The translations under genes and the position numbers were made by a program. A model generated the notes under the pieces. The model saw nothing but the letters and a program-made list of their open reading frames with translations. It ran no database searches and had not been told where the DNA came from. A DNA stretch of 64,000 bases, taken from the NCBI GenBank assembly GCA_016235665.1, contig JACRJI010000014.1, positions 147,544 to 211,543 on the forward strand, given 5' to 3'. The stretch is from a candidate division TA06 bacterium. GTDB taxonomy: Bacteria > Edwardsbacteria > AC1 > EtOH8. Of the stretch, positions 661 to 10,102 are shown piece by piece; within the stretch, counting starts at the first letter, position 1; the number at the start of each line of letters is the position of its first letter.

Positions 661-2358
661 ATGCTACTTTCTGAAAGAAAATCAACGTTCGATTCGGATC
701 CTTGCCTGCAGGCTGCTCTCCACATCATGGAACTGGCAAGGCAGACAGGTACAGAACGTGAGCTTTTCATCCTGCAGGCCCTAAAAGTGATCCGGGCATT
801 TCCGCAAAACCTCGGACTGATCCAGGGGTATGTCAGGAGCGTGGAGCGGAGGCTTTTGCCAAAGTTGATCAATGAAAAGTATCAAAGCCAGGTGCCGGAT
901 TCAAGGGTTTTTGGCGGGAATATCCACCTGGGAAATGTAGTTGAGAACAATGTTCCCGCCAGGATCACGACGGGACAGCTTAACCAGAACATCCTGATTT
1001 ATGGGAGGACAGGATCAGGCAAGTCGAATTTCAATATGCATGTTATCCCCCAGATTGCAGGGCTTGGGATAAAATGTGAAATATTTGATTTCAAACGGGA
1101 GTACCGGGACCTTTGGACATTACAGGATTGCCAGCCCATGATAGTACTCAATACCAGCAATGACAAATACAACCCGCTGGAACCAGTCGGGAATCCCAAG
1201 GGGTATAACCAGTTTTTCTGGGACATCTGCCAGCAGGATTTCAACATTCGCCCGGAAACTAAGCAAATGTTGATAATTTGTACCGACGAGTTGTATGCCC
1301 GTTTCGGGGTATACAACAATGGGAAATACTTTCCCACCTTATATGACCTCTATGATTACCTTAAAGAGAAGGCTGAAACGGCCAATCCCAAGATATTCAG
1401 GGGAATGGAAGTGATTCTGTCGATAATAAACCGGCTGGGCGCTATGGTTGATTGCAGTTCGGGATATGACCTCTCCGGTTTTAAAACGGTGTGCTATGAG
1501 GTGGATAACCTGAGTGAGGATTTAAGGTCCTGGATTATGAAACTGAGATTAAAAAAAAGCTACGAACAGGGTCTGAAATACAATCAACGGAATATATTGA
1601 GAAAAATTCTGGTTTTCGACGAGGCGAAGATGGTTTTTGGACAGAGCCGGATCGGGGAAGCGACCAACTATTTTAAGGATGCCATTACCCAGCAACGGGC
1701 ATTGGGTACCGGACTGCTTATTTCCGACCAGAACCCGTCGGAGTTGGCCGACTTCATCAGGAATAATGTCTATGGACAGGTCTGTTTTCATCTGGTCCAT
1801 CCTAAGGAAAGGCGGAACGCCGCACAATCTTTGGGTGGCACCGAGGACTTTGAATTGAAGATTGCGCGTTTGGCAATTCCCAACGCATATATTTCTCTGG
1901 GGCATTACCCGTACCCATTCCTGATGAGAATACCCAAAAGCAGGGTAACCTGGCATATCGGGGATGGAGAATTTGATCGTCTTATGCAGCCGGTAATATC
2001 CAGATTACAGTATATCCCCAGATACAAACCCGTTAAACCCGCTATTGTAATAACCCCAAAAGTCAACATACCGGAGAAACCAGCCAGCATTCCCAAAACA
2101 GACTCTACCGGAGATCTGTTTGAGCAATGGATAAATCTTTTAAAACATATTAAGGCGAATCCTGAAGACAATGTTTCGAAAATATACGATAAGCTGGGGT
2201 TGTCCAGAAGGAAGGGCAATTTGATCAAGGAACAGCTTTTGGAAAATTGTTTGATTGAAGAGGAGGTTGTCCATACCAAGGAGAGGAAACGGCCCCAAAA
2301 GCGACTAAAGCTCACTCTAAAGGGGGAGGAATATGTCAAAAGGCAAAGGCGGGCCTGA
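661..2358 (+). CDS. FtsK/HerA/VirB4-superfamily P-loop NTPase (DUF87-like)
   Basis: Walker A ILIYGRTGSGKS; Walker B hydrophobic run ILVFDEAKM; downstream LLISDQNPSEL sensor-like segment; 565 aa. Confidence 0.6.
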   Translation: MLLSERKSTFDSDPCLQAALHIMELARQTGTERELFILQALKVIRAFPQNLGLIQGYVRSVERRLLPKLINEKYQSQVPDSRVFGGNIHLGNVVENNVPARITTGQLNQNILIYGRTGSGKSNFNMHVIPQIAGLGIKCEIFDFKREYRDLWTLQDCQPMIVLNTSNDKYNPLEPVGNPKGYNQFFWDICQQDFNIRPETKQMLIICTDELYARFGVYNNGKYFPTLYDLYDYLKEKAETANPKIFRGMEVILSIINRLGAMVDCSSGYDLSGFKTVCYEVDNLSEDLRSWIMKLRLKKSYEQGLKYNQRNILRKILVFDEAKMVFGQSRIGEATNYFKDAITQQRALGTGLLISDQNPSELADFIRNNVYGQVCFHLVHPKERRNAAQSLGGTEDFELKIARLAIPNAYISLGHYPYPFLMRIPKSRVTWHIGDGEFDRLMQPVISRLQYIPRYKPVKPAIVITPKVNIPEKPASIPKTDSTGDLFEQWINLLKHIKANPEDNVSKIYDKLGLSRRKGNLIKEQLLENCLIEEEVVHTKERKRPQKRLKLTLKGEEYVKRQRRA

Positions 2359-2683
2359 ACACCAAAAGGCACAATGCCTTATAAGGGATTACTACCAGGC
2401 CCGGGGCATGGTGGCCGTTATAGAGGCTTTTCTTGGAAACAAGAATATAGATGTGTTGGTGCAGGATCCAGAGACTGGGCAGATCATAGCCATAGAATAC
2501 CAGACGACGATTAAACATGCTTTGGAGAATGTTCTGCTTGACCATGTTTTTTGTGACGAGGTGATTCTCGTTTCGGCCGATATCCGGGTGCTTGGGCAAA
2601 TGAAGCGGAAGATTGACGGGAACGGGGCAATTAACGGACAAAAAGTAAAATATAGGCTACTCAAGGAGTTTATTCCACAATAA
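2333..2683 (+). CDS. hypothetical 116-aa protein (possible degenerate PD-(D/E)xK-like fold)
   Basis: ORF with GGGGAGG RBS 6 nt upstream, overlaps ATPase stop by 26 nt; IDVLVQDPETGQIIAIEYQ resembles YraN-like nuclease core but is not diagnostic. Confidence 0.35.
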   Translation: MSKGKGGPEHQKAQCLIRDYYQARGMVAVIEAFLGNKNIDVLVQDPETGQIIAIEYQTTIKHALENVLLDHVFCDEVILVSADIRVLGQMKRKIDGNGAINGQKVKYRLLKEFIPQ

Positions 2684-2771
2684 TGGTAATCTGGTCAGTA
2701 GTAATAACCCGGAATAAAATATGGAATTTAACCAACGGACTAAAATCCCAAAACGAAAGGAGGTGAACAGT

Positions 2772-3512
2772 ATGCAAAGAAAAACAATATCCCTGATTGT
2801 GGCAGGCAGTGGGGTGATCAAAGACCTGGCGATTTCTCCGGAAACGACGGTCCATGACATCATCAATCAGAACGGACTATCTGGCTATGCTCTGTCCAAG
2901 GGCAACGAACAGAGTCTCAGTCAGGAGGATAACATCTTCAATTCGGTCATGGATGGCGACGAGGTCTATGCATCGCCGGAGGATGTTTCTGTAGGCAGAC
3001 AACCCCCTGCCTCCCCCTTCGGGGGGAAACCGTCCTTCCAGTTTGAAAAGATAACTGGCATCCGGCAAACGGTAACCCACTCAGGAGTGACGGAGACCCG
3101 CAAGGTGGAGGTGGTCCGGACTAGAACGTATGATAAGACCCTATTTCTCAAAAAGCGGTCAGGGCTGCCCTATTGGATGAAGGCCGGTTGGTTTCAGACA
3201 AATGATGGATACAATGGGTGGTACCGGACTAAATACGGAAGTTGGAAGGGTTATATCCATCGGGATTATCAGGATTCCTACTCGTATTTCATCATCGATC
3301 CTCCGAGTGAAGTAAAAAATGGATCCCATGGAGCTTGTTTTTCCCACCGGGGAAACGGTAAATATCAAGTGCATTTTAGTGTCAAGCCGACGGATATCGG
3401 GGATGGTATTCTAACGGTTGAGAGACTTATTAGCGAATCATTCGGTCAAAAGAACCACAAGGCACATAGAGGAGGCTTTATATCATGTTTACGAAAACTG
3501 GGGCTTTTGTGA
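2772..3512 (+). CDS. ubiquitin-like (beta-grasp) domain protein fused through an FGG motif to a ~160-aa C-terminal domain
   Basis: N-terminal KTISLIVAGSGVIKDLAISPETTVHDII...DGDEVYA matches the ThiS/MoaD/ubiquitin beta-grasp pattern; linker RQPPASPFGG then C-terminal domain; strong AAAGGAGG RBS before ATG 2772. Confidence 0.55.
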   Translation: MQRKTISLIVAGSGVIKDLAISPETTVHDIINQNGLSGYALSKGNEQSLSQEDNIFNSVMDGDEVYASPEDVSVGRQPPASPFGGKPSFQFEKITGIRQTVTHSGVTETRKVEVVRTRTYDKTLFLKKRSGLPYWMKAGWFQTNDGYNGWYRTKYGSWKGYIHRDYQDSYSYFIIDPPSEVKNGSHGACFSHRGNGKYQVHFSVKPTDIGDGILTVERLISESFGQKNHKAHRGGFISCLRKLGLL

Positions 3513-3541
3513 TGAGGTTTCAATGACAGCGGAGAAGGAAG

Positions 3542-4168
3542 ATGATTGAGCAGCAGATTGAGGCCCATATCACATTGTTAAAGGTAAAAGTAATTGCTCA
3601 CAGCGTTGTGGAGGTAAAAAACCTATGTGCTTCCATTTTAGACCTGCTGGAGCTTCACCGGATAGCGGCCAAGTATGGTTCGGTTGAGGACGAAAAAAGG
3701 ATTGTTTTTATAATTCCATCGCTTTTCCTACGGGATTGTTTAGATTACTTGAGGCAACAGGAGGAGGAATCGCTTCATTTCGTAACCGGAGTCCATATAG
3801 ATAATATTGTGATCCTTGACCGGCTTGTCAAACTGGAATTTGAAAAGCAGACTGTTGTCTTTGCCAAGGCTGATTCTACTTCGGTTAAAAATGCCTTGCT
3901 GGAACTGACGAGAAACGGTTATCGGCTTTTTGCATACTTTCATATCCATCCGGGCACCGGAGAACCAGCCACGCATCCTTCAAGTATCGATAAAAAGCTT
4001 GATGAGCTGTTGCAACGCGGAAAATATCAGGCAGTCGGTGCGATATTTAGTAGGGATGGTTACGCGCGGTTCTTCACCGACGGCAATTATGAAGTCCAAA
4101 TATACGGAAGGGGGGTGCAACAGATTGATGATAGAACTTTTAAGGTCGTTGAACCGGCCAAAACATAA
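3542..4168 (+). CDS. JAB/MPN (JAMM) metallo-isopeptidase
   Basis: JAMM-type motif FHIHPGTGEPATHPSSID (HxH...S..D); 208 aa; between Ubl and E1 genes. Confidence 0.7.
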   Translation: MIEQQIEAHITLLKVKVIAHSVVEVKNLCASILDLLELHRIAAKYGSVEDEKRIVFIIPSLFLRDCLDYLRQQEEESLHFVTGVHIDNIVILDRLVKLEFEKQTVVFAKADSTSVKNALLELTRNGYRLFAYFHIHPGTGEPATHPSSIDKKLDELLQRGKYQAVGAIFSRDGYARFFTDGNYEVQIYGRGVQQIDDRTFKVVEPAKT

Positions 4169-4187
4169 GACTTTTCATACCCCAGGC

Positions 4188-4934
4188 ATGGCCATGAGGT
4201 GTGAAGAAGACCGCAGGAATCTGACGGCCAGACAGGAAGTCGTTTTAGGTTTTGACCAGAATGTTATGAAAAGATTGTCCATATTGCAGATTGGAGCAGG
4301 TGGGCTTGGTGGAGAGATATGCCAGGGGTTGGTCCGAAAAGGCGTAGGGACCGTGAAGGTATTTGACGGGGATGTCGTCGAGCCATCAAACCTAACGCGA
4401 CAGAGGTTTTATCCAAAAGACCTTTACAGGAATAAGGCGTTGTCATTGGCTGGCAATCTTATGAAAGAGGCGATCATTAAAACTGAAATTATTGCTTATC
4501 CTTTCATGTTCCAACGGGCATTGGAGGAGGGGATGAATATGGATTGTGATATCGTGATTTGCGCCCCGGACAATGACGAAGTCCGGCGTTTTACGGCGAA
4601 GTATTTTCTCAATAAAGTGCCGGTTATATTTACGGGATTGGACCGGAAGGCAAATACCGGCTATGTTTTCATTCAGGAACCGGGCAAAGCTTGTTTCGAG
4701 TGTGCGATACCGTCTGCAAAAAGGAATAAAAGAGAACCGTGCCCGAATACTCCGGCAGTCATTGACTTGGTCAAGATCATTTCAGGTTTGGTCCTTTTTG
4801 CGGTTGATTCGACGGTAATGCATAGAAAACGAAACTGGAACTACAGACAAATATTCCTCTGCGGGTATATCCCCGAAATTATATGGACGGTTAAAAGAAG
4901 TAATAAATGTCAGATTTGCGGTACCAAATGGTAA
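4188..4934 (+). CDS. E1-like ubiquitin-activating / ThiF-MoeB family adenylyltransferase (minimal, ~249 aa)
   Basis: Rossmann ILQIGAGGLGGEICQGLVRKGVG, then FDGDVVEPSNLTRQ (E1/ThiF signature), CFEC...CQIC zinc pairs; start chosen 20 nt after JAB stop rather than the overlapping ATG 3930. Confidence 0.8.
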   Translation: MAMRCEEDRRNLTARQEVVLGFDQNVMKRLSILQIGAGGLGGEICQGLVRKGVGTVKVFDGDVVEPSNLTRQRFYPKDLYRNKALSLAGNLMKEAIIKTEIIAYPFMFQRALEEGMNMDCDIVICAPDNDEVRRFTAKYFLNKVPVIFTGLDRKANTGYVFIQEPGKACFECAIPSAKRNKREPCPNTPAVIDLVKIISGLVLFAVDSTVMHRKRNWNYRQIFLCGYIPEIIWTVKRSNKCQICGTKW

Positions 4935-5015: not shown

Positions 5016-5516
5016 ATGAAACCGCCATTAAGACAGGGAAGTGCGAATGACTTTCAGACACCAGCCCAAGCATTGCACCCGTTATACCAATATTTGAAAA
5101 AAGATTGGACAATATGGGAGTGTGCCCAGGGTAAGGGGAATATTGTCAGAGAATTACGGGCACGAGGGTGGAAAGTAATAGGCACAGATATATTAGATGG
5201 TCATGATTATTTATCTTATCTGCCGTCGAGATTCAATTGTATGATTACTAATCCTCCATATAGCATCAAGCAGCTGTTTTTAGAACGTGCATATTCTCTG
5301 CAAAAACCTTTTGCGTTTCTCTTGCCCTTGACCACATTTGAAACGAGAAAGCGACAGTATCTTTTTGAAAAATACGGGTTGGAGGTGATATTTTTCGATA
5401 AACGAATAAATTTTGAAACACCGAGCGGGAGAGGAACGGGAGCCTGGTTTGCGACGGCGTGGTTTACATGGGGTCTGAACATTGGCAAACAAATGACGTT
5501 TTGTAAATATGAATAA
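5016..5516 (+). CDS. small DNA methyltransferase, probably N6-adenine (phage Dam-like), NPPY motif
   Basis: ITNPPYS catalytic motif IV; 166 aa, size typical of phage orphan MTases. Confidence 0.6.
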   Translation: MKPPLRQGSANDFQTPAQALHPLYQYLKKDWTIWECAQGKGNIVRELRARGWKVIGTDILDGHDYLSYLPSRFNCMITNPPYSIKQLFLERAYSLQKPFAFLLPLTTFETRKRQYLFEKYGLEVIFFDKRINFETPSGRGTGAWFATAWFTWGLNIGKQMTFCKYE

Positions 5517-5733
5517 AGTGCGTACAATGGATCAACTAATTGACATAATAACCTTATCAAAACTCTTGAGCGTCAAGCCGATGACCATATATGGTTGGAT
5601 ACACGAGGGTGTAATTCCATATATCAAGCTTGGCCGGCTGGTGCGTTTCAGTGAAAAGGAAGTTCAAGCCTGGCTTAACAAGAAGAAACGAGAGGGACAA
5701 CCAGTAAAAGCAACGGATATAGATTTAACTTAA
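5509..5733 (+). CDS. AlpA/Xis-family helix-turn-helix excisionase-like DNA-binding protein
   Basis: LLSVKPMTIYGWIHEGVIPYIKLGRLVRFSEKEVQAWL matches excisionase/AlpA HTH pattern; immediately upstream of the integrase. Confidence 0.7.
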   Translation: MNKVRTMDQLIDIITLSKLLSVKPMTIYGWIHEGVIPYIKLGRLVRFSEKEVQAWLNKKKREGQPVKATDIDLT

Positions 5734-5802
5734 CTTGACATGGCAATAGGGTATAGGTTAACCCCAAAAGGTAATAATTCATTCATAAAGGAGGGAAGTG
5801 AA

Positions 5803-6861
5803 ATGCGTATATATAAAAGAAATGAGATTTGGTATTTGGACTACAATTATAAAGGCAAGCGATATCGTAAACGCGTCGGTAAATCCCAGAAAATGGCAGA
5901 ACTGGCACTTAAGAACATTGAGGTGAAAATTGTTAAAAAAGAGCATCTCGGCGTACAGGACGACAAAAAGATACTATTCGAGGATTTTACGACAAAATAT
6001 CTCGACTACGCCAAAGTAAACAAGTCCCCTAAATCATATTACCTCAACATAGGTAATATGAAAGCCATGCTGCCGTTTTTCAAAGGGAAATATCTATCCG
6101 AGATCACCCCTCAGGACATCGAGAGATATAAAGCAGAACGATCTTCGACGGTAAAACCAGCTACCCTTAACAGGGATCTTGCCTGCCTGCGGCATATGCT
6201 CAATAAAGCCATCGAGTGGGGATACCAACAGGTGAATCCGATGAAAGGGGTAAAACTCCTGAAGGAGCCTCCGGGGAGGTTGCGTTTCTTGTCCGAGGAG
6301 GAAATCAAAATACTACTGCATGAGTTGCCAGCAGGCTCAAAACTCATCGTACTGGTCGCGATGTACACCGGGATGAGAAGGTCTGAAATCCTCAATCTCA
6401 ATTGGAGCAATGTGGATTTGAAGAACAGGATCCTTGTCGTCGAGAAAACCAAGACCAATGAGCGGAGAATCATCCCTATCAACGATGGTTTGTATTCTCA
6501 GCTACATGAACTGTCCACAAGGAAAAAGAGCGAATTGGTATTTGCCGAATGTAGGATCAATTTACGGAGGAACTTCACAGATGCTTTGAAGAGGGCAAAT
6601 ATCAGAAATTTCAGATTTCACGACCTTCGCCACACCTTCGCGAGCTATCTTGTAATGAGCGGAGCCAGTATCAAAGTGGTCCAGCAGCTTCTCGGCCATA
6701 AGGATTTGAAAATGACGATGAGATATTCGCACCTTTCAAACGAACACCTCCAGGAAGCTGTTGGAAAGTTAAATTACACAAAACAGGATAAGATAGAACC
6801 GCAAACAGTAAGAGAAACCAGGAGCCGATATAAGTACAATCATATTATGTCCCTAAGGTAA
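5803..6861 (+). CDS. int: tyrosine site-specific integrase (phage integrase family)
   Basis: C-terminal HDLRHTFASYLV...LLGHKDLKMTMRYSHL catalytic box; N-terminal arm-type WYLDY..GKRYRKR; RBS AAGGAGGG before ATG 5803. Confidence 0.9.
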   Translation: MRIYKRNEIWYLDYNYKGKRYRKRVGKSQKMAELALKNIEVKIVKKEHLGVQDDKKILFEDFTTKYLDYAKVNKSPKSYYLNIGNMKAMLPFFKGKYLSEITPQDIERYKAERSSTVKPATLNRDLACLRHMLNKAIEWGYQQVNPMKGVKLLKEPPGRLRFLSEEEIKILLHELPAGSKLIVLVAMYTGMRRSEILNLNWSNVDLKNRILVVEKTKTNERRIIPINDGLYSQLHELSTRKKSELVFAECRINLRRNFTDALKRANIRNFRFHDLRHTFASYLVMSGASIKVVQQLLGHKDLKMTMRYSHLSNEHLQEAVGKLNYTKQDKIEPQTVRETRSRYKYNHIMSLR

Positions 6862-6865
6862 CAAA

Positions 6866-6894
6866 AATAGCCCAGCTTTTTAAGCTGGGCTATT
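6866..6894 (+). terminator. perfect 11-bp inverted repeat hairpin AATAGCCCAGC/GCTGGGCTATT after int
   Basis: seen in sequence; not followed by a T-run; the shared stem motif recurs at 7694. Confidence 0.4.
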
Positions 6895-6928
6895 CTACTC
6901 ACAACGACAATAACCTAAGGAGGATAAA

Positions 6929-7170: not shown

Positions 7171-7599
7171 ATGAGTAACATGGCTAAAATCTACATTCCC
7201 GAGGATGTCCTCTATTATCTGAAACTTGTTGGTTTCGATAAATTTGTATATTCGAACATTGACAAAGTGGTTTTCCGGACTGATCTTTCAACTGGTGGTT
7301 TAGCGTTTATTGGGAGCCGTCCCCGGCTGGTGCACATTAAATTACGTTCCCCACCCGTCAATAATACAGCATGGAAACAATTAACCGCCATATCCAATGC
7401 AACAACTTATGTACATGAAGCCGCACATCATTACAGATGGGAGAATTATCATGATCGTGGAGAGTATGCACCAAAATGTTATGAATGGCGGTTCTTACGG
7501 GCATTGCAACCTCTGATCGAACCTCAAGGAAAAATCCGAATTGTTATTCACAGAACGTGGTGGGGTGGCTTTAAGGGGTGCAGTTTATTAATCGTTTGA
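7171..7599 (+). CDS. hypothetical protein with HExxH zincin-like motif (VHEAAHH)
   Basis: RBS AAAGGAGG; HEAAH motif; 142 aa. Confidence 0.4.
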   Translation: MSNMAKIYIPEDVLYYLKLVGFDKFVYSNIDKVVFRTDLSTGGLAFIGSRPRLVHIKLRSPPVNNTAWKQLTAISNATTYVHEAAHHYRWENYHDRGEYAPKCYEWRFLRALQPLIEPQGKIRIVIHRTWWGGFKGCSLLIV

Positions 7600-7693
7600 A
7601 TGCTCGGGTCCCTGATGGAATAATAAATACATTTTAGTGCATTTGAATGGGCATTTACAAAAAGCCGTTAGGAAGTTAAGCTTTGCTAAAGAG

Positions 7694-7727
7694 AATAGCC
7701 CAGCATAGTAGCCGGGCTATTCTTTTC
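7694..7727 (+). terminator. hairpin AATAGCCC-loop-GGGCTATT followed by T-rich tract
   Basis: 8-bp stem sharing the AATAGCCC motif with hairpin at 6866; CTTTTCT follows. Confidence 0.4.
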
Positions 7728-7729
7728 TG

Positions 7730-7758
7730 TTGACAAGGAGTATATCGGATGTTACTAT
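7730..7758 (+). promoter_or_regulatory. sigma70-like promoter TTGACA-17 bp-TACTAT upstream of the caspase-like/cyclase gene pair
   Basis: TTGACA at 7730, 17-bp spacer, TACTAT at 7753. Confidence 0.35.
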
Positions 7759-7790
7759 TATGTGAGTAAAAAAATCTAGTATTAATTGCA

Positions 7791-8462
7791 GTGATTTATA
7801 TGAGAAAAAGCATAAAACATAAGTATTCATCTCTACTTATCATTGAATGCGATTCAAATAAACTTCAGAGACAAAACATTGATATAGCAAGTAAGATTAA
7901 CGACCTTTTTCAAAAATTACCATTTTGTAAGCACAAATACATTCGTACGTTTGAGAAATCAGATTTATGCTTAAAAATAAATGAAATCTCTAAAGAACAT
8001 TACGATATTATTGTTTTAACAGGCCATACTTTTACTGATGGAGGGGGTAGGCCTGTCCGTTTCGATTTTGCAAGTGACTATAAACCAGAATTATCAGTCT
8101 TACCTTCTTTTTTAAATACATTTAAACCTAAATGTTTGATTATGGCTTCGTGTAAGGGGTCTCATTTTATTACCACGGATGTGATGTTTAATGGGATGCC
8201 AACACTAAAAGAAATATATGGCTCTCCGGTTTTGACAAATTCAAAACAACTTCAAATATTATTACTATTGATACCATATATTATATTCAGCGATAAATAT
8301 GATGACGGCATTTTATTTTTAAGCAATATTGTTAATTTTGTACAATCTGGAGGATATATTGTTAGGCATACACGTGCGGAATTTATAAATAAAAGACCGA
8401 TTAAATATATTCAACAAGAAATGTATGATTCTCTAAAAAGTATTTTAAGTAATAGTCATTAA
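7791..8462 (+). CDS. caspase-like (peptidase C14/CHAT-type) protein
   Basis: IIVLTGHTFTDGGG (His-Gly) and KPKCLIMASCKGS (compare caspase KPKLFFIQACRG) about 42 aa apart, matching caspase His/Cys dyad spacing. Confidence 0.5.
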   Translation: MIYMRKSIKHKYSSLLIIECDSNKLQRQNIDIASKINDLFQKLPFCKHKYIRTFEKSDLCLKINEISKEHYDIIVLTGHTFTDGGGRPVRFDFASDYKPELSVLPSFLNTFKPKCLIMASCKGSHFITTDVMFNGMPTLKEIYGSPVLTNSKQLQILLLLIPYIIFSDKYDDGILFLSNIVNFVQSGGYIVRHTRAEFINKRPIKYIQQEMYDSLKSILSNSH

Positions 8463-8478
8463 TAAAGGCACAACACAT

Positions 8479-9267
8479 ATGGCACATTATAGATATAATT
8501 CTCTAGAAGATTATTTAATATCTCAGCCCCTAACGGTTGATGGTGTTTTGGATGATGGATGGGGTGCCTCGTTTCCAGTTAAAGGGCGTGAAGTAGAGGC
8601 AACAATATTATTTTCTGACATTTCGTCATTCACTCGACGCACTCTTGATTTAACCCCTACGGAAACATTAATATTTGTCAACAATTTTTTCTCATGGATT
8701 ACAGCTGAAGCTTTAAGGGATAAACCAGCGATTATTGACAAGTATGTCGGTGATGAGATGATGATTGTATTTTCAAATGAGTTTGGGTCTAAAGATCATT
8801 TTGTCGATGCTATTCAAACCGCAAGGTGGATGGGAGAATATGACATACTTGATTTCCGTCCTCACATAGGAATAGCAAGTGGCCCCGTTATTATTGGCTA
8901 TGTTGGTACACCTGTTAAATATAATTGTTCTGTATTTGGTCATACCGTCGCATTAGCGAAGAGGTGTGCAGGGGTGAAAATGAGCGATACTAGTCCATAT
9001 ATGGTTTTCCCGACACGATCATGGCAGGGTCGTTCGTTTGAAGAAATAATTCCACTTGTGAAAATGAAGAAATCGGAAAGTGAATTTGTTGAATTACCAC
9101 AAAGCTGGAAATTAGCCCCAAGTCGTAAAGTCAGCTTAAACAATATTGGTGATGTTGACGTAATGGGCATTATAAATATGTTATTAACAGAACCATCACA
9201 GTCCGCAGTGGAAAGAGCAAAAGAATCGTTAACTATTCTTAAAGCCAATGGCAGTTGCAGACAATAA
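8479..9267 (+). CDS. stand-alone class III nucleotidyl cyclase (adenylyl/guanylyl-cyclase catalytic domain)
   Basis: ATILFSDISSFT (metal Asp), KYVGDEMMIVF (second Asp), RPHIGIASGPVIIGYVG, YNCSVFGHTVALAKR (Asn/Arg transition-state residues); only ~45-aa N-terminal extension. Confidence 0.7.
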   Translation: MAHYRYNSLEDYLISQPLTVDGVLDDGWGASFPVKGREVEATILFSDISSFTRRTLDLTPTETLIFVNNFFSWITAEALRDKPAIIDKYVGDEMMIVFSNEFGSKDHFVDAIQTARWMGEYDILDFRPHIGIASGPVIIGYVGTPVKYNCSVFGHTVALAKRCAGVKMSDTSPYMVFPTRSWQGRSFEEIIPLVKMKKSESEFVELPQSWKLAPSRKVSLNNIGDVDVMGIINMLLTEPSQSAVERAKESLTILKANGSCRQ

Positions 9268-9336
9268 TGATTATCAATTAGACACTACTGCATCGTTAGG
9301 CACAAATCCGACACAACAGCATTTTATCAATAATAG

Positions 9337-9365: not shown

Positions 9366-9413
9366 AGTCCAAGTGCGTTGAAATAATAGTGGCAATCTCT
9401 TAATCAGCGGGTC

Positions 9414-9441
9414 AAAGGTTCGAGTCCTTTATGGCGCACCA
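9414..9441 (+). other. tRNA 3-prime-end fragment (T-arm AAAGG-TTCGAGT-CCTTT, acceptor 3-prime strand, discriminator, CCA); candidate att-site remnant
   Basis: GGTTCGAGTCC T-loop and ...ATGGCGCACCA end; no complementary 5-prime acceptor strand within 90 nt upstream, so not a complete tRNA. Confidence 0.45.
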
Positions 9442-9450
9442 GTTTTTAGC

Positions 9451-9477
9451 AGCACAGTTAAAATACTGTGCTTTTTG
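9451..9477 (+). terminator. intrinsic terminator AGCACAGT-loop-ACTGTGCT plus TTTTTGTTT
   Basis: 8-bp perfect stem followed by T-run. Confidence 0.6.
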
Positions 9478-9494: not shown

Positions 9495-9523
9495 TTGACA
9501 AAGGGTGTTAATATTGGTATCTT
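9495..9523 (+). promoter_or_regulatory. sigma70-like promoter TTGACA-17 bp-TATCTT upstream of ssrA leader
   Basis: TTGACA 9495, 17-bp spacer, TATCTT 9518. Confidence 0.35.
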
Positions 9524-9528
9524 TATAC

Positions 9529-9745
9529 AAGCGATCAAATAAAAGGGGGGCGTCCTTCGGAAACAAAGCAAGAGGGACTACCTCAGTATGACGAAGCAAA
9601 CAAATAAAAGGGGGGCGACCCCGCATCAGGCATAATACAAGCAAACAATTCCTGCGGGGCAGGGAAGGCATCAAATAAAAGGGGGCGACACTTCGACAAG
9701 TTGGGCAAGGGGCGTTTCTCAGTGCAAGGAAGCAATCAAATATTA
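9529..9745 (+). repeat. three degenerate tandem copies (~67-nt period) of the ssrA 5-prime end motif CAAATAAAAGGGGGGCGAC in the ssrA leader
   Basis: copies at ~9538, ~9602 and ~9687 share ATCAAATAAAAGGGGG(G)CG(AC) with the authentic tmRNA start at 9746; the third copy also shares ACTTCGACAAG with GTTTCGACGG. Confidence 0.6.
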
Positions 9746-10102
9746 GGGGGCGACAGGTTTCGACGGTAAAGAAAGGGTTTAAGTGGCATGCCGAGAAAGT
9801 CAGAGGGCTCGTTAAAATACTGGCAACGTCATAATTGACACTTACAACTACGCTCTGGCAGCTTAATTTTAGCTGCCATGCCGCTGCAGGTCCCCGCCTA
9901 TCGGATCTGCAAACGGCATCGCAAAGATGGGCTGGTCCGAGACGCCCGGCCCGGGCATTTCGGATGAGATCTTAGGGCTGCTCTCTTAAGGGATCGTGTT
10001 TGTGCGAGACTTTTAGGGAAAAGACCAAAACACAAAACAAGCATGTAGAGGCTTAGGTTCTTACCTTATCGGACGTGGGTTCAATTCCCACCGCCTCCAC
10101 CA
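9746..10102 (+). ncRNA. ssrA: tmRNA (SsrA), one-piece
   Basis: 5-prime GGGGGCGACAGGTTTCGACGG; 3-prime GGACGTGGGTTCAATTCCCACCGCCTCCACCA; acceptor GGGGGCG/CGCCUCC pairs; tag ORF ending ...AAC TAC GCT CTG GCA GCT TAA (NYALAA*). Confidence 0.9.

Follow-up and report, generated by a model that had tools for sequence, protein, structure and literature searches.

Nucleotide-activated proteases of the caspase-like or CHAT type have precedents in SAVED-CHAT and type IV Thoeris. The SAVED-CHAT protease is switched on by a cyclic oligonucleotide. In SAVED-CHAT and Craspase a SAVED or TPR sensor/adaptor is fused to CHAT and the genes belong to a CRISPR-Cas locus; in a published cascade, SAVED-CHAT also activates a stand-alone PCaspase. 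In type IV Thoeris, a caspase-like protease found in defence islands and mobile elements is the partner of a small enzyme that produces a nucleotide signal, in this case a TIR protein (signal N7-cADPR), and the caspase carries a C-terminal domain that is thought to bind the ligand. In Pycsar systems, the cyclase has a class III fold, lacks a regulatory domain and is located on mobile or defence DNA, and the effector combines cNMP binding with a TIR or transmembrane domain. Cyclase and caspase-like genes occur together in one operon in the case of Clade F Pycsar and type IV Thoeris, where no cross-activation was observed and no protection was obtained from chimeric constructs combining the cyclase with the caspase (PMC13069673).

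The locus described here is a cassette of two cargo genes in a candidate division TA06 bacterium, located on an integrase-borne genomic island at the end nearest the tRNA. It resembles the last example in that a cyclase and a caspase-like gene (genes B and A, respectively) lie together on defence DNA. The Clade F Pycsar and type IV Thoeris genes, however, have cognate partners (a transmembrane effector and a TIR protein), neither of which is present in the window, i.e. the entire 64,000 nt stretch that was analysed. Compared with SAVED-CHAT (PDB 8tl0; about 475 aa, including the SAVED sensor), protein A has only 220 aa, lacks SAVED, and is 8–10% identical; it consists of a single domain, and no cas genes were found among the island ORFs examined. 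It is like the type IV Thoeris caspase in being paired with a small enzyme of nucleotide signalling, but that enzyme is a cyclase rather than a TIR protein, and the C-terminal domain of the ligand-binding type is absent. Gene B shares with Pycsar the cyclase fold, the absence of a regulatory domain and the mobile/defence setting, and it gives weak matches to PADLOC PycC models, whereas protein A has none of the Pycsar effector domains, the family of gene B has no conserved partner, and a PDB profile search with the cyclase found no PycC chain at E 0.01. With the canonical bacterial adenylyl cyclases (Spirulina CyaC, bPAC, P. aeruginosa CyaB), gene B has in common the fold, both metal-binding Asp residues, the specificity Lys, the Arg, and a Ser/Thr at the second specificity position. 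Its family differs from these enzymes in replacing the Asn by Ala, Thr or Val, in having conserved extensions and no sensory or regulatory domain, and in its patchy occurrence among defence genes.

Layout of the cassette and its genomic island

The features referred to below are as follows.

5509–6861, + strand: mobility module of the island, with an HTH_17 excisionase-like gene (5509–5733; HTH_17, 9.5e-12) and a tyrosine integrase gene (5740–6861; Phage_integrase, 4e-37)
7689–7726, + strand: intrinsic-terminator-like hairpin followed by UUUUCU (-23.1 kcal/mol, z = -4.9; equalled by none of 200 shuffled sequences)
7730–7758, + strand: sigma-70-like promoter candidate, TTGACA-17-TACTAT with a TG extension (10 of 12 matches)
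7800–8462, + strand: gene A, candidate for a minimal CHAT/caspase-like (clan CD fold) cysteine protease of 220 aa
8479–9267, + strand: gene B, compact class III nucleotide cyclase of 262 aa with conserved N- and C-terminal extensions
9390–9441, + strand: 3' half of a tRNA gene, with anticodon-loop-like CTCTTAATC, T arm, acceptor and CCA (read directly)
9451–9472, + strand: terminator hairpin 3' of the tRNA remnant (-11.8 kcal/mol, z = -2.25)

Genes A and B are carried on the + strand and are separated by only 16 nt, as had been described in an earlier note on this DNA. The hairpin at 7689–7726 closes the upstream unit, which contains a 142-aa ORF (7171–7599), and isolates the cassette. The TTGACA-17-TACTAT sequence named in the same note does lie upstream of the pair, but on its own it is weak evidence for a promoter, because sites of this type are frequent in the AT-rich region (20 found, against 12.1 expected). 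The pair had also been described as bracketed by terminator hairpins, and this is correct for the upstream side only: directly 3' of the cyclase gene, nt 9268–9340 fold no better than shuffled sequences, and the first terminator past the cassette (9451–9472) is located about 185 nt downstream of the cyclase gene, after the tRNA remnant. Since the upstream hairpin is followed at once by the promoter candidate, genes A and B look like a transcription unit of their own, and they are predicted to be co-transcribed.

The tRNA 3' half has a Lys-CTT-like anticodon loop and its own terminator, and is unique in the window; no complete tRNA was detected by ARAGORN anywhere in the window. It is likely to be the remnant of the right-hand attachment site and to mark the end of the island, and beyond it the G+C content climbs from about 0.39 to 0.50–0.57. 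The G+C content is 0.30–0.47 up to about nt 9500, and 0.50–0.62 thereafter. The integrase and excisionase genes, the step in G+C content and the tRNA remnant together identify the cassette as the last cargo of an integrative island. A tmRNA gene (9746–10102) follows past the tRNA remnant. The region 9529–9756 has four copies of a unit of about 27 nt (AAGCnATCAAATAAAAGGGGGGCGnC), at spacings of 65, 71 and 65 nt, the last of which runs into the 5' end of the tmRNA gene; in appearance these are partial duplications, in tandem, of the region around the start or promoter of the tmRNA.

Upstream of the integrase module is a second block of low-G+C cargo (661–4934). This block encodes a HerA-like ATPase (DUF87; PADLOC mad8/HerA), a ThiF/E1-like protein (PADLOC E1-E2, 1.7e-17) and three unannotated ORFs, one of them JAB-like by eye, and it may be a ubiquitin-like conjugation defence cluster. 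The 142-aa ORF bears a metalloprotease-like HEAAH (HExxH) motif and has no match in Pfam, PADLOC, NCBIfam or PHROGs. It was considered as a further partner of the module and rejected, given the terminator between it and gene A and the absence of a family match; nor is it similar (E 0.16) to the 144-aa ORF that lies upstream of the closest intact homologue of gene A. The ORFs adjoining gene A (the 142-aa ORF, a 73-aa ORF and the cyclase) gave no TIR match, and a search of the window for a cNMP-binding-like ORF by single-sequence phmmer, which is a weak test, was negative.

Gene A: a caspase/CHAT-like protein

The ORF of gene A had been placed at 7791–8462. It is real, but the GTG at 7791 is not its start, as the deposited protein, from a candidate division TA06 metagenome-assembled genome, begins at the ATG at 7800 and is 220 aa long. 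It contains LTGHTFTDGGG and KPKCLIMASCKGS. Numbered from this ATG, His76 (8025–8027) and Cys118 (8151–8153) are 42 residues apart, in agreement with the caspase-type dyad and caspase-like spacing that had been read from the sequence.

Protein A is not matched by any model in Pfam (including CHAT and Peptidase_C14), NCBIfam, PADLOC or PHROG, and a word-indexed homologue search with it returned only itself. An exhaustive phmmer search of 1.84 billion representatives recovered 140 relatives, most of them single-domain proteins of 200–260 aa. In an alignment of 60 sequences (18–47% identity to A), no columns other than L22, H76 and C118 are invariant, the latter two within the motifs 'IvviGHsN' and 'LvaCeaG'. 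The AlphaFold2 model built from this alignment has a pLDDT of 93.6 and a pTM of 0.90. It displays the alpha/beta fold of the caspase-hemoglobinase type, a result with which Foldseek agrees, and the best structural match is SAVED-CHAT (PDB 8tl0). A catalytic-type His and then a Cys each end a hydrophobic beta-strand (H76 after strand 70–74, C118 after strand 112–116), as in clan CD enzymes. The earlier note had named the lack of a caspase fold in structure prediction as grounds for refutation, and this test was passed clearly.

A PDB sequence search with the A-family profile gave nothing meaningful, and hhalign of this profile with a real Pfam C14 domain, while placing H76 and C118 on its SGHG and DCC motifs, was not significant (E 0.31). 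SLOG, TIR and alpha/beta-hydrolase (GHSxG-like) folds were considered and rejected, as the Ser is not conserved and the structural matches are to clan CD proteases. Protein A is nearly a protease domain alone, with a C-terminal helix. Neither the family search nor the model revealed a SAVED, CARF or cNMP-binding domain, or any additional C-terminal or sensor domain. On the strength of the model, protein A can be assigned with confidence to the caspase/CHAT-like fold and is a candidate protease. The A family is an uncharacterised family within a known fold class, and is without a model in Pfam, NCBIfam, PADLOC and PHROGs.

Gene B: a compact class III cyclase

Gene B encodes a real compact class III cyclase on a mobile island. 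It matches Pfam Guanylate_cyc over residues 40–163 (1.1e-9), has the cyclase-homology (palm) fold, and contains FSDI, GDEMM and YNCSVFGHTVALAKR; matches to PADLOC PycC models are weak and partial (1.2e-5, 22.6 bits, and 2.9e-4). Key residues are the metal-binding Asp47 (8617–8619) and Asp92 (8752–8754), Lys88 (8740–8742) and Arg162 (8962–8964), all four of which are invariant in 37 sequences of the cyclase family and align with their bPAC equivalents. The protein had been credited with every catalytic hallmark of its class, but this does not hold for the transition-state Asn of the G-D-x-V-N-x-A-x-R motif. In the profile alignment to bPAC, the Asn of GDAVNVAAR falls opposite Ala158 (8950–8952) in GHTVALAKR, so that Ala occupies the canonical Asn position. 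This column is A, T or V in the family, with Asn in just one of the 37 sequences. The Asn of 'YNC' is at a different position and is not invariant.

By both profile and structure the cyclase is nearer to canonical adenylyl and guanylyl cyclases than to Pycsar PycC. Its substrate is probably a purine nucleotide and the likeliest product cAMP, because the specificity positions Lys88/Ser151 resemble those of the Lys-Thr bacterial adenylyl cyclases. By analogy with all class III cyclases, it presumably works as a homodimer.

The cyclase belongs to an uncharacterised family within a known fold class. More than 665 matches in the protein database and more than 558 metagenome stretches were found, with conservation over the full length (about 55–63% identity), and the hosts include Zixibacteria, Chloroflexi, Verrucomicrobiota, Planctomycetia, Actinomycetes and Thorarchaeota. 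A single-sequence scan of genome contigs gave only 5 true loci of this family.

A second copy of the pair in a related island

The closest relative of the cyclase (88% aa identity) is found in another integrase island, recovered from three samples (L001–L003). The integrases of the two islands are 64% identical and the cargo is otherwise different. The two-gene block of L001 aligns with nt 7802–9247 of the window at 74.8% nt identity; it has a hairpin upstream, a gap of 9 nt between the genes, and at its end tRNA 3' sequence as in the window. In L001 the 30 nt identical to the tRNA 3' half of the window (6893–6922) flank the cyclase gene on the opposite strand, indicating that the two islands are placed differently relative to the tRNA.

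In all three independent assemblies (reads SRR9164852, SRR32041004 and SRR30849499), gene A has suffered a 1-nt deletion directly after the catalytic His, at about 5560–5585 in L001, so that two ORFs of 94 and 128 aa stand in its place. The L001 cyclase is intact, with 100 of the 137 differences from the window at third codon positions, and by this measure it is under strong purifying selection. For gene A, 117 of the 227 differences are at third codon positions, an excess which, as far as codon positions can tell, shows that selection acted on gene A while it was paired. Just upstream of the frameshifted block (L001, 2311–5254), the cargo of the sister island comprises an S24 peptidase, DUF6602, a SMODS nucleotidyltransferase and a CBASS-type E2 (PADLOC E2, 3.6e-57).

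Distribution of the two families

The protease-cyclase pair was seen only in the window and in this one close relative. An A-family gene was found at none of about 33 other non-redundant loci of the cyclase family, nor in the surroundings of other class III cyclases (about 150 loci), and a cyclase of the window type was present at none of the 8 other A-family loci. The pair is therefore not kept as neighbours across divergent genomes. Of the cyclase plus caspase-like defence module envisaged in the earlier note, the caspase-like fold and the compact class III cyclase on a mobile island stand, but conservation of the pair as neighbours, the lack of which that note had named as grounds for refutation, is largely wanting.

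Both families show a patchy, cross-phylum distribution among varied defence genes. At the cyclase-family loci, no cluster of neighbours is common to more than two or three loci; genes nearby include restriction-modification systems of type I, II, IIG, III and ISP, Shedu SduA, an S8 peptidase, sortases and others. The neighbours of A-family genes are of many kinds: a type IIG restriction-modification gene with an OLD-like gene; a SIR2-like gene with an HNH gene that overlaps the A-family gene by 4 nt; Avs3a; a DUF3892 gene with a 1-nt overlap (its last base is the first base of the A-family gene); Hachiman HamA/HamB; a GajA/OLD-like ATPase, with the A-family gene 24 nt after it, and a type III methyltransferase; and a caspase-HamB-like helicase fusion, followed after 65 nt by the A-family gene. 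One locus is isolated. At the locus of the helicase fusion (L120, 1913–4936 and 8031–9810), this fusion is a 1007-aa protein combining Peptidase_C14 with a HamB-like DEAD helicase, and is itself preceded by a DUF1883 gene. At a distance of 2.3 kb, on the other strand, L120 carries a complete canonical Pycsar system (PycC-like cyclase plus cNMP_binding-TIR effector), the cyclase of which differs from the window cyclase family.

The cyclase family is absent from the phage, viral and plasmid collections searched, where only distant cyclases (≤35% identity) were found, and the A family is absent from the plasmid collection. Hundreds of environmental IMG/VR viral contigs (L125–L204) encode short class III cyclases about 30–35% identical to the core of the window cyclase (residues ~36–163); these are not members of the window family. 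At one locus (L036, 786–1559 and 2523–3431), the gene for a cyclase relative, with 68% identity in the aligned segment, has a further gene on either side. The upstream one encodes a 257-aa protein that opens with a cyclase-like 'AFIDILGYG' motif, and the downstream one a zinc-ribbon protein with a C-terminus that by eye is TIR-like or deoxyribosyltransferase-like.

Possible functions of the two genes

The reading preferred here, with confidence barely better than even, is that the cassette holds two independently functioning, separately mobile defence-island genes rather than an obligate signal-effector pair. Protein A would be a sensor-less, single-domain CHAT/caspase-like cysteine protease acting through the His76/Cys118 dyad, and gene B would encode a compact homodimeric class III cyclase that forms a cyclic purine nucleotide, probably cAMP; the two would act independently while sharing one cassette as defence-island cargo. 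This is suggested by the way in which each family is otherwise scattered singly through defence islands with ever-changing neighbours, in a sample of 8 other A-family and about 33 other cyclase-family loci, and by the sole other copy of the pair, in which gene A is frameshifted and the cyclase maintained. Adjacency is in itself weak evidence of joint function, as the operon of PMC13069673 showed no cross-activation. On the other hand, the short spacing of the genes in both islands and the single promoter/terminator frame have the look of a functional operon, and the block has survived about 25% nucleotide divergence in two islands that otherwise differ in cargo. It is also not obvious how a cyclase could stop a phage without an effector, and the best structural match of protein A is an enzyme activated by a cyclic oligonucleotide.

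The operon-like layout, the retention of the block in a second island and the excess of third-position changes in gene A would all suit a signal-effector pair, in which infection leads to synthesis of a cyclic nucleotide that binds protein A directly (e.g. at a dimer interface), and the activated protease, by cutting proteins of the host or the phage, brings the infection to an abortive end. SAVED-CHAT, the top structural match, and type IV Thoeris provide the precedents for such activation. This scheme is nevertheless rather unlikely, and a direct link from cNMP to protease is to be regarded with similar scepticism: protein A has no SAVED, CARF, cNMP-binding or extra C-terminal domain, while the Thoeris caspase does have one; neither family partners the other anywhere else in the sample; in the one other copy of the pair gene A has become a pseudogene, and the cyclase there is maintained; and the cyclase resembles a cAMP-type enzyme rather than PycC. 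The coupling might also run in reverse or as a cascade, with protein A as the sensor or regulator, for instance by clipping the N- or C-terminal extension of the cyclase or some other target, or protein A might be a generic plug-in executioner or accessory protease. A-family genes do lie tightly behind very different genes (overlaps of 4 and 1 nt, gaps of 24 and 65 nt), the extensions of the cyclase family are conserved, and the cascade from SAVED-CHAT to PCaspase is a published parallel, but the cyclase family keeps its extensions at loci that have no A-family gene, and such schemes appear very improbable. Finally, neither gene may be concerned with immunity, the cyclase serving ordinary cAMP-type signalling or regulation between island and host, and protein A being a housekeeping or island-maintenance protease. 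The closeness of the cyclase, in sequence and structure, to canonical regulatory adenylyl and guanylyl cyclases and its weak PycC matches are in line with this. Against it, both families are patchy and cross-phylum, their flanks vary and abound in mobile elements or in genes for restriction-modification and defence, and the cyclase is absent from the phage, viral and plasmid collections and the A family from the plasmid collection. This pattern is typical of defence cargo and not of housekeeping genes, and a non-immune function seems quite unlikely.

Implications

These comparisons fall short of establishing a new cyclase-caspase signalling system. That the product of a minimal class III cyclase lacking the Asn directly activates a CHAT/caspase-like protease of 220 aa without a sensor domain, as part of a cyclic-nucleotide immune module, is doubtful; if true, the pairing of cyclase and protease would be unlike that of Pycsar, type IV Thoeris and SAVED-CHAT, and if proteins A and B do interact, they would form the smallest known nucleotide-activated protease system. 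In a weaker version, the A family may be a previously unrecognised plug-in executioner protease that is recruited by many defence systems. The cyclase family is very widespread and unusually conserved across bacterial and archaeal phyla, with neither the canonical catalytic residue nor a fixed partner. The A family is invisible to the family databases, yet its fold is predicted with confidence and its genes lie within defence islands, beside those of Hachiman, OLD/Gabija-like, Avs and restriction-modification systems, all of which marks the family out as a concrete candidate for a new immune protease, whether stand-alone or accessory.
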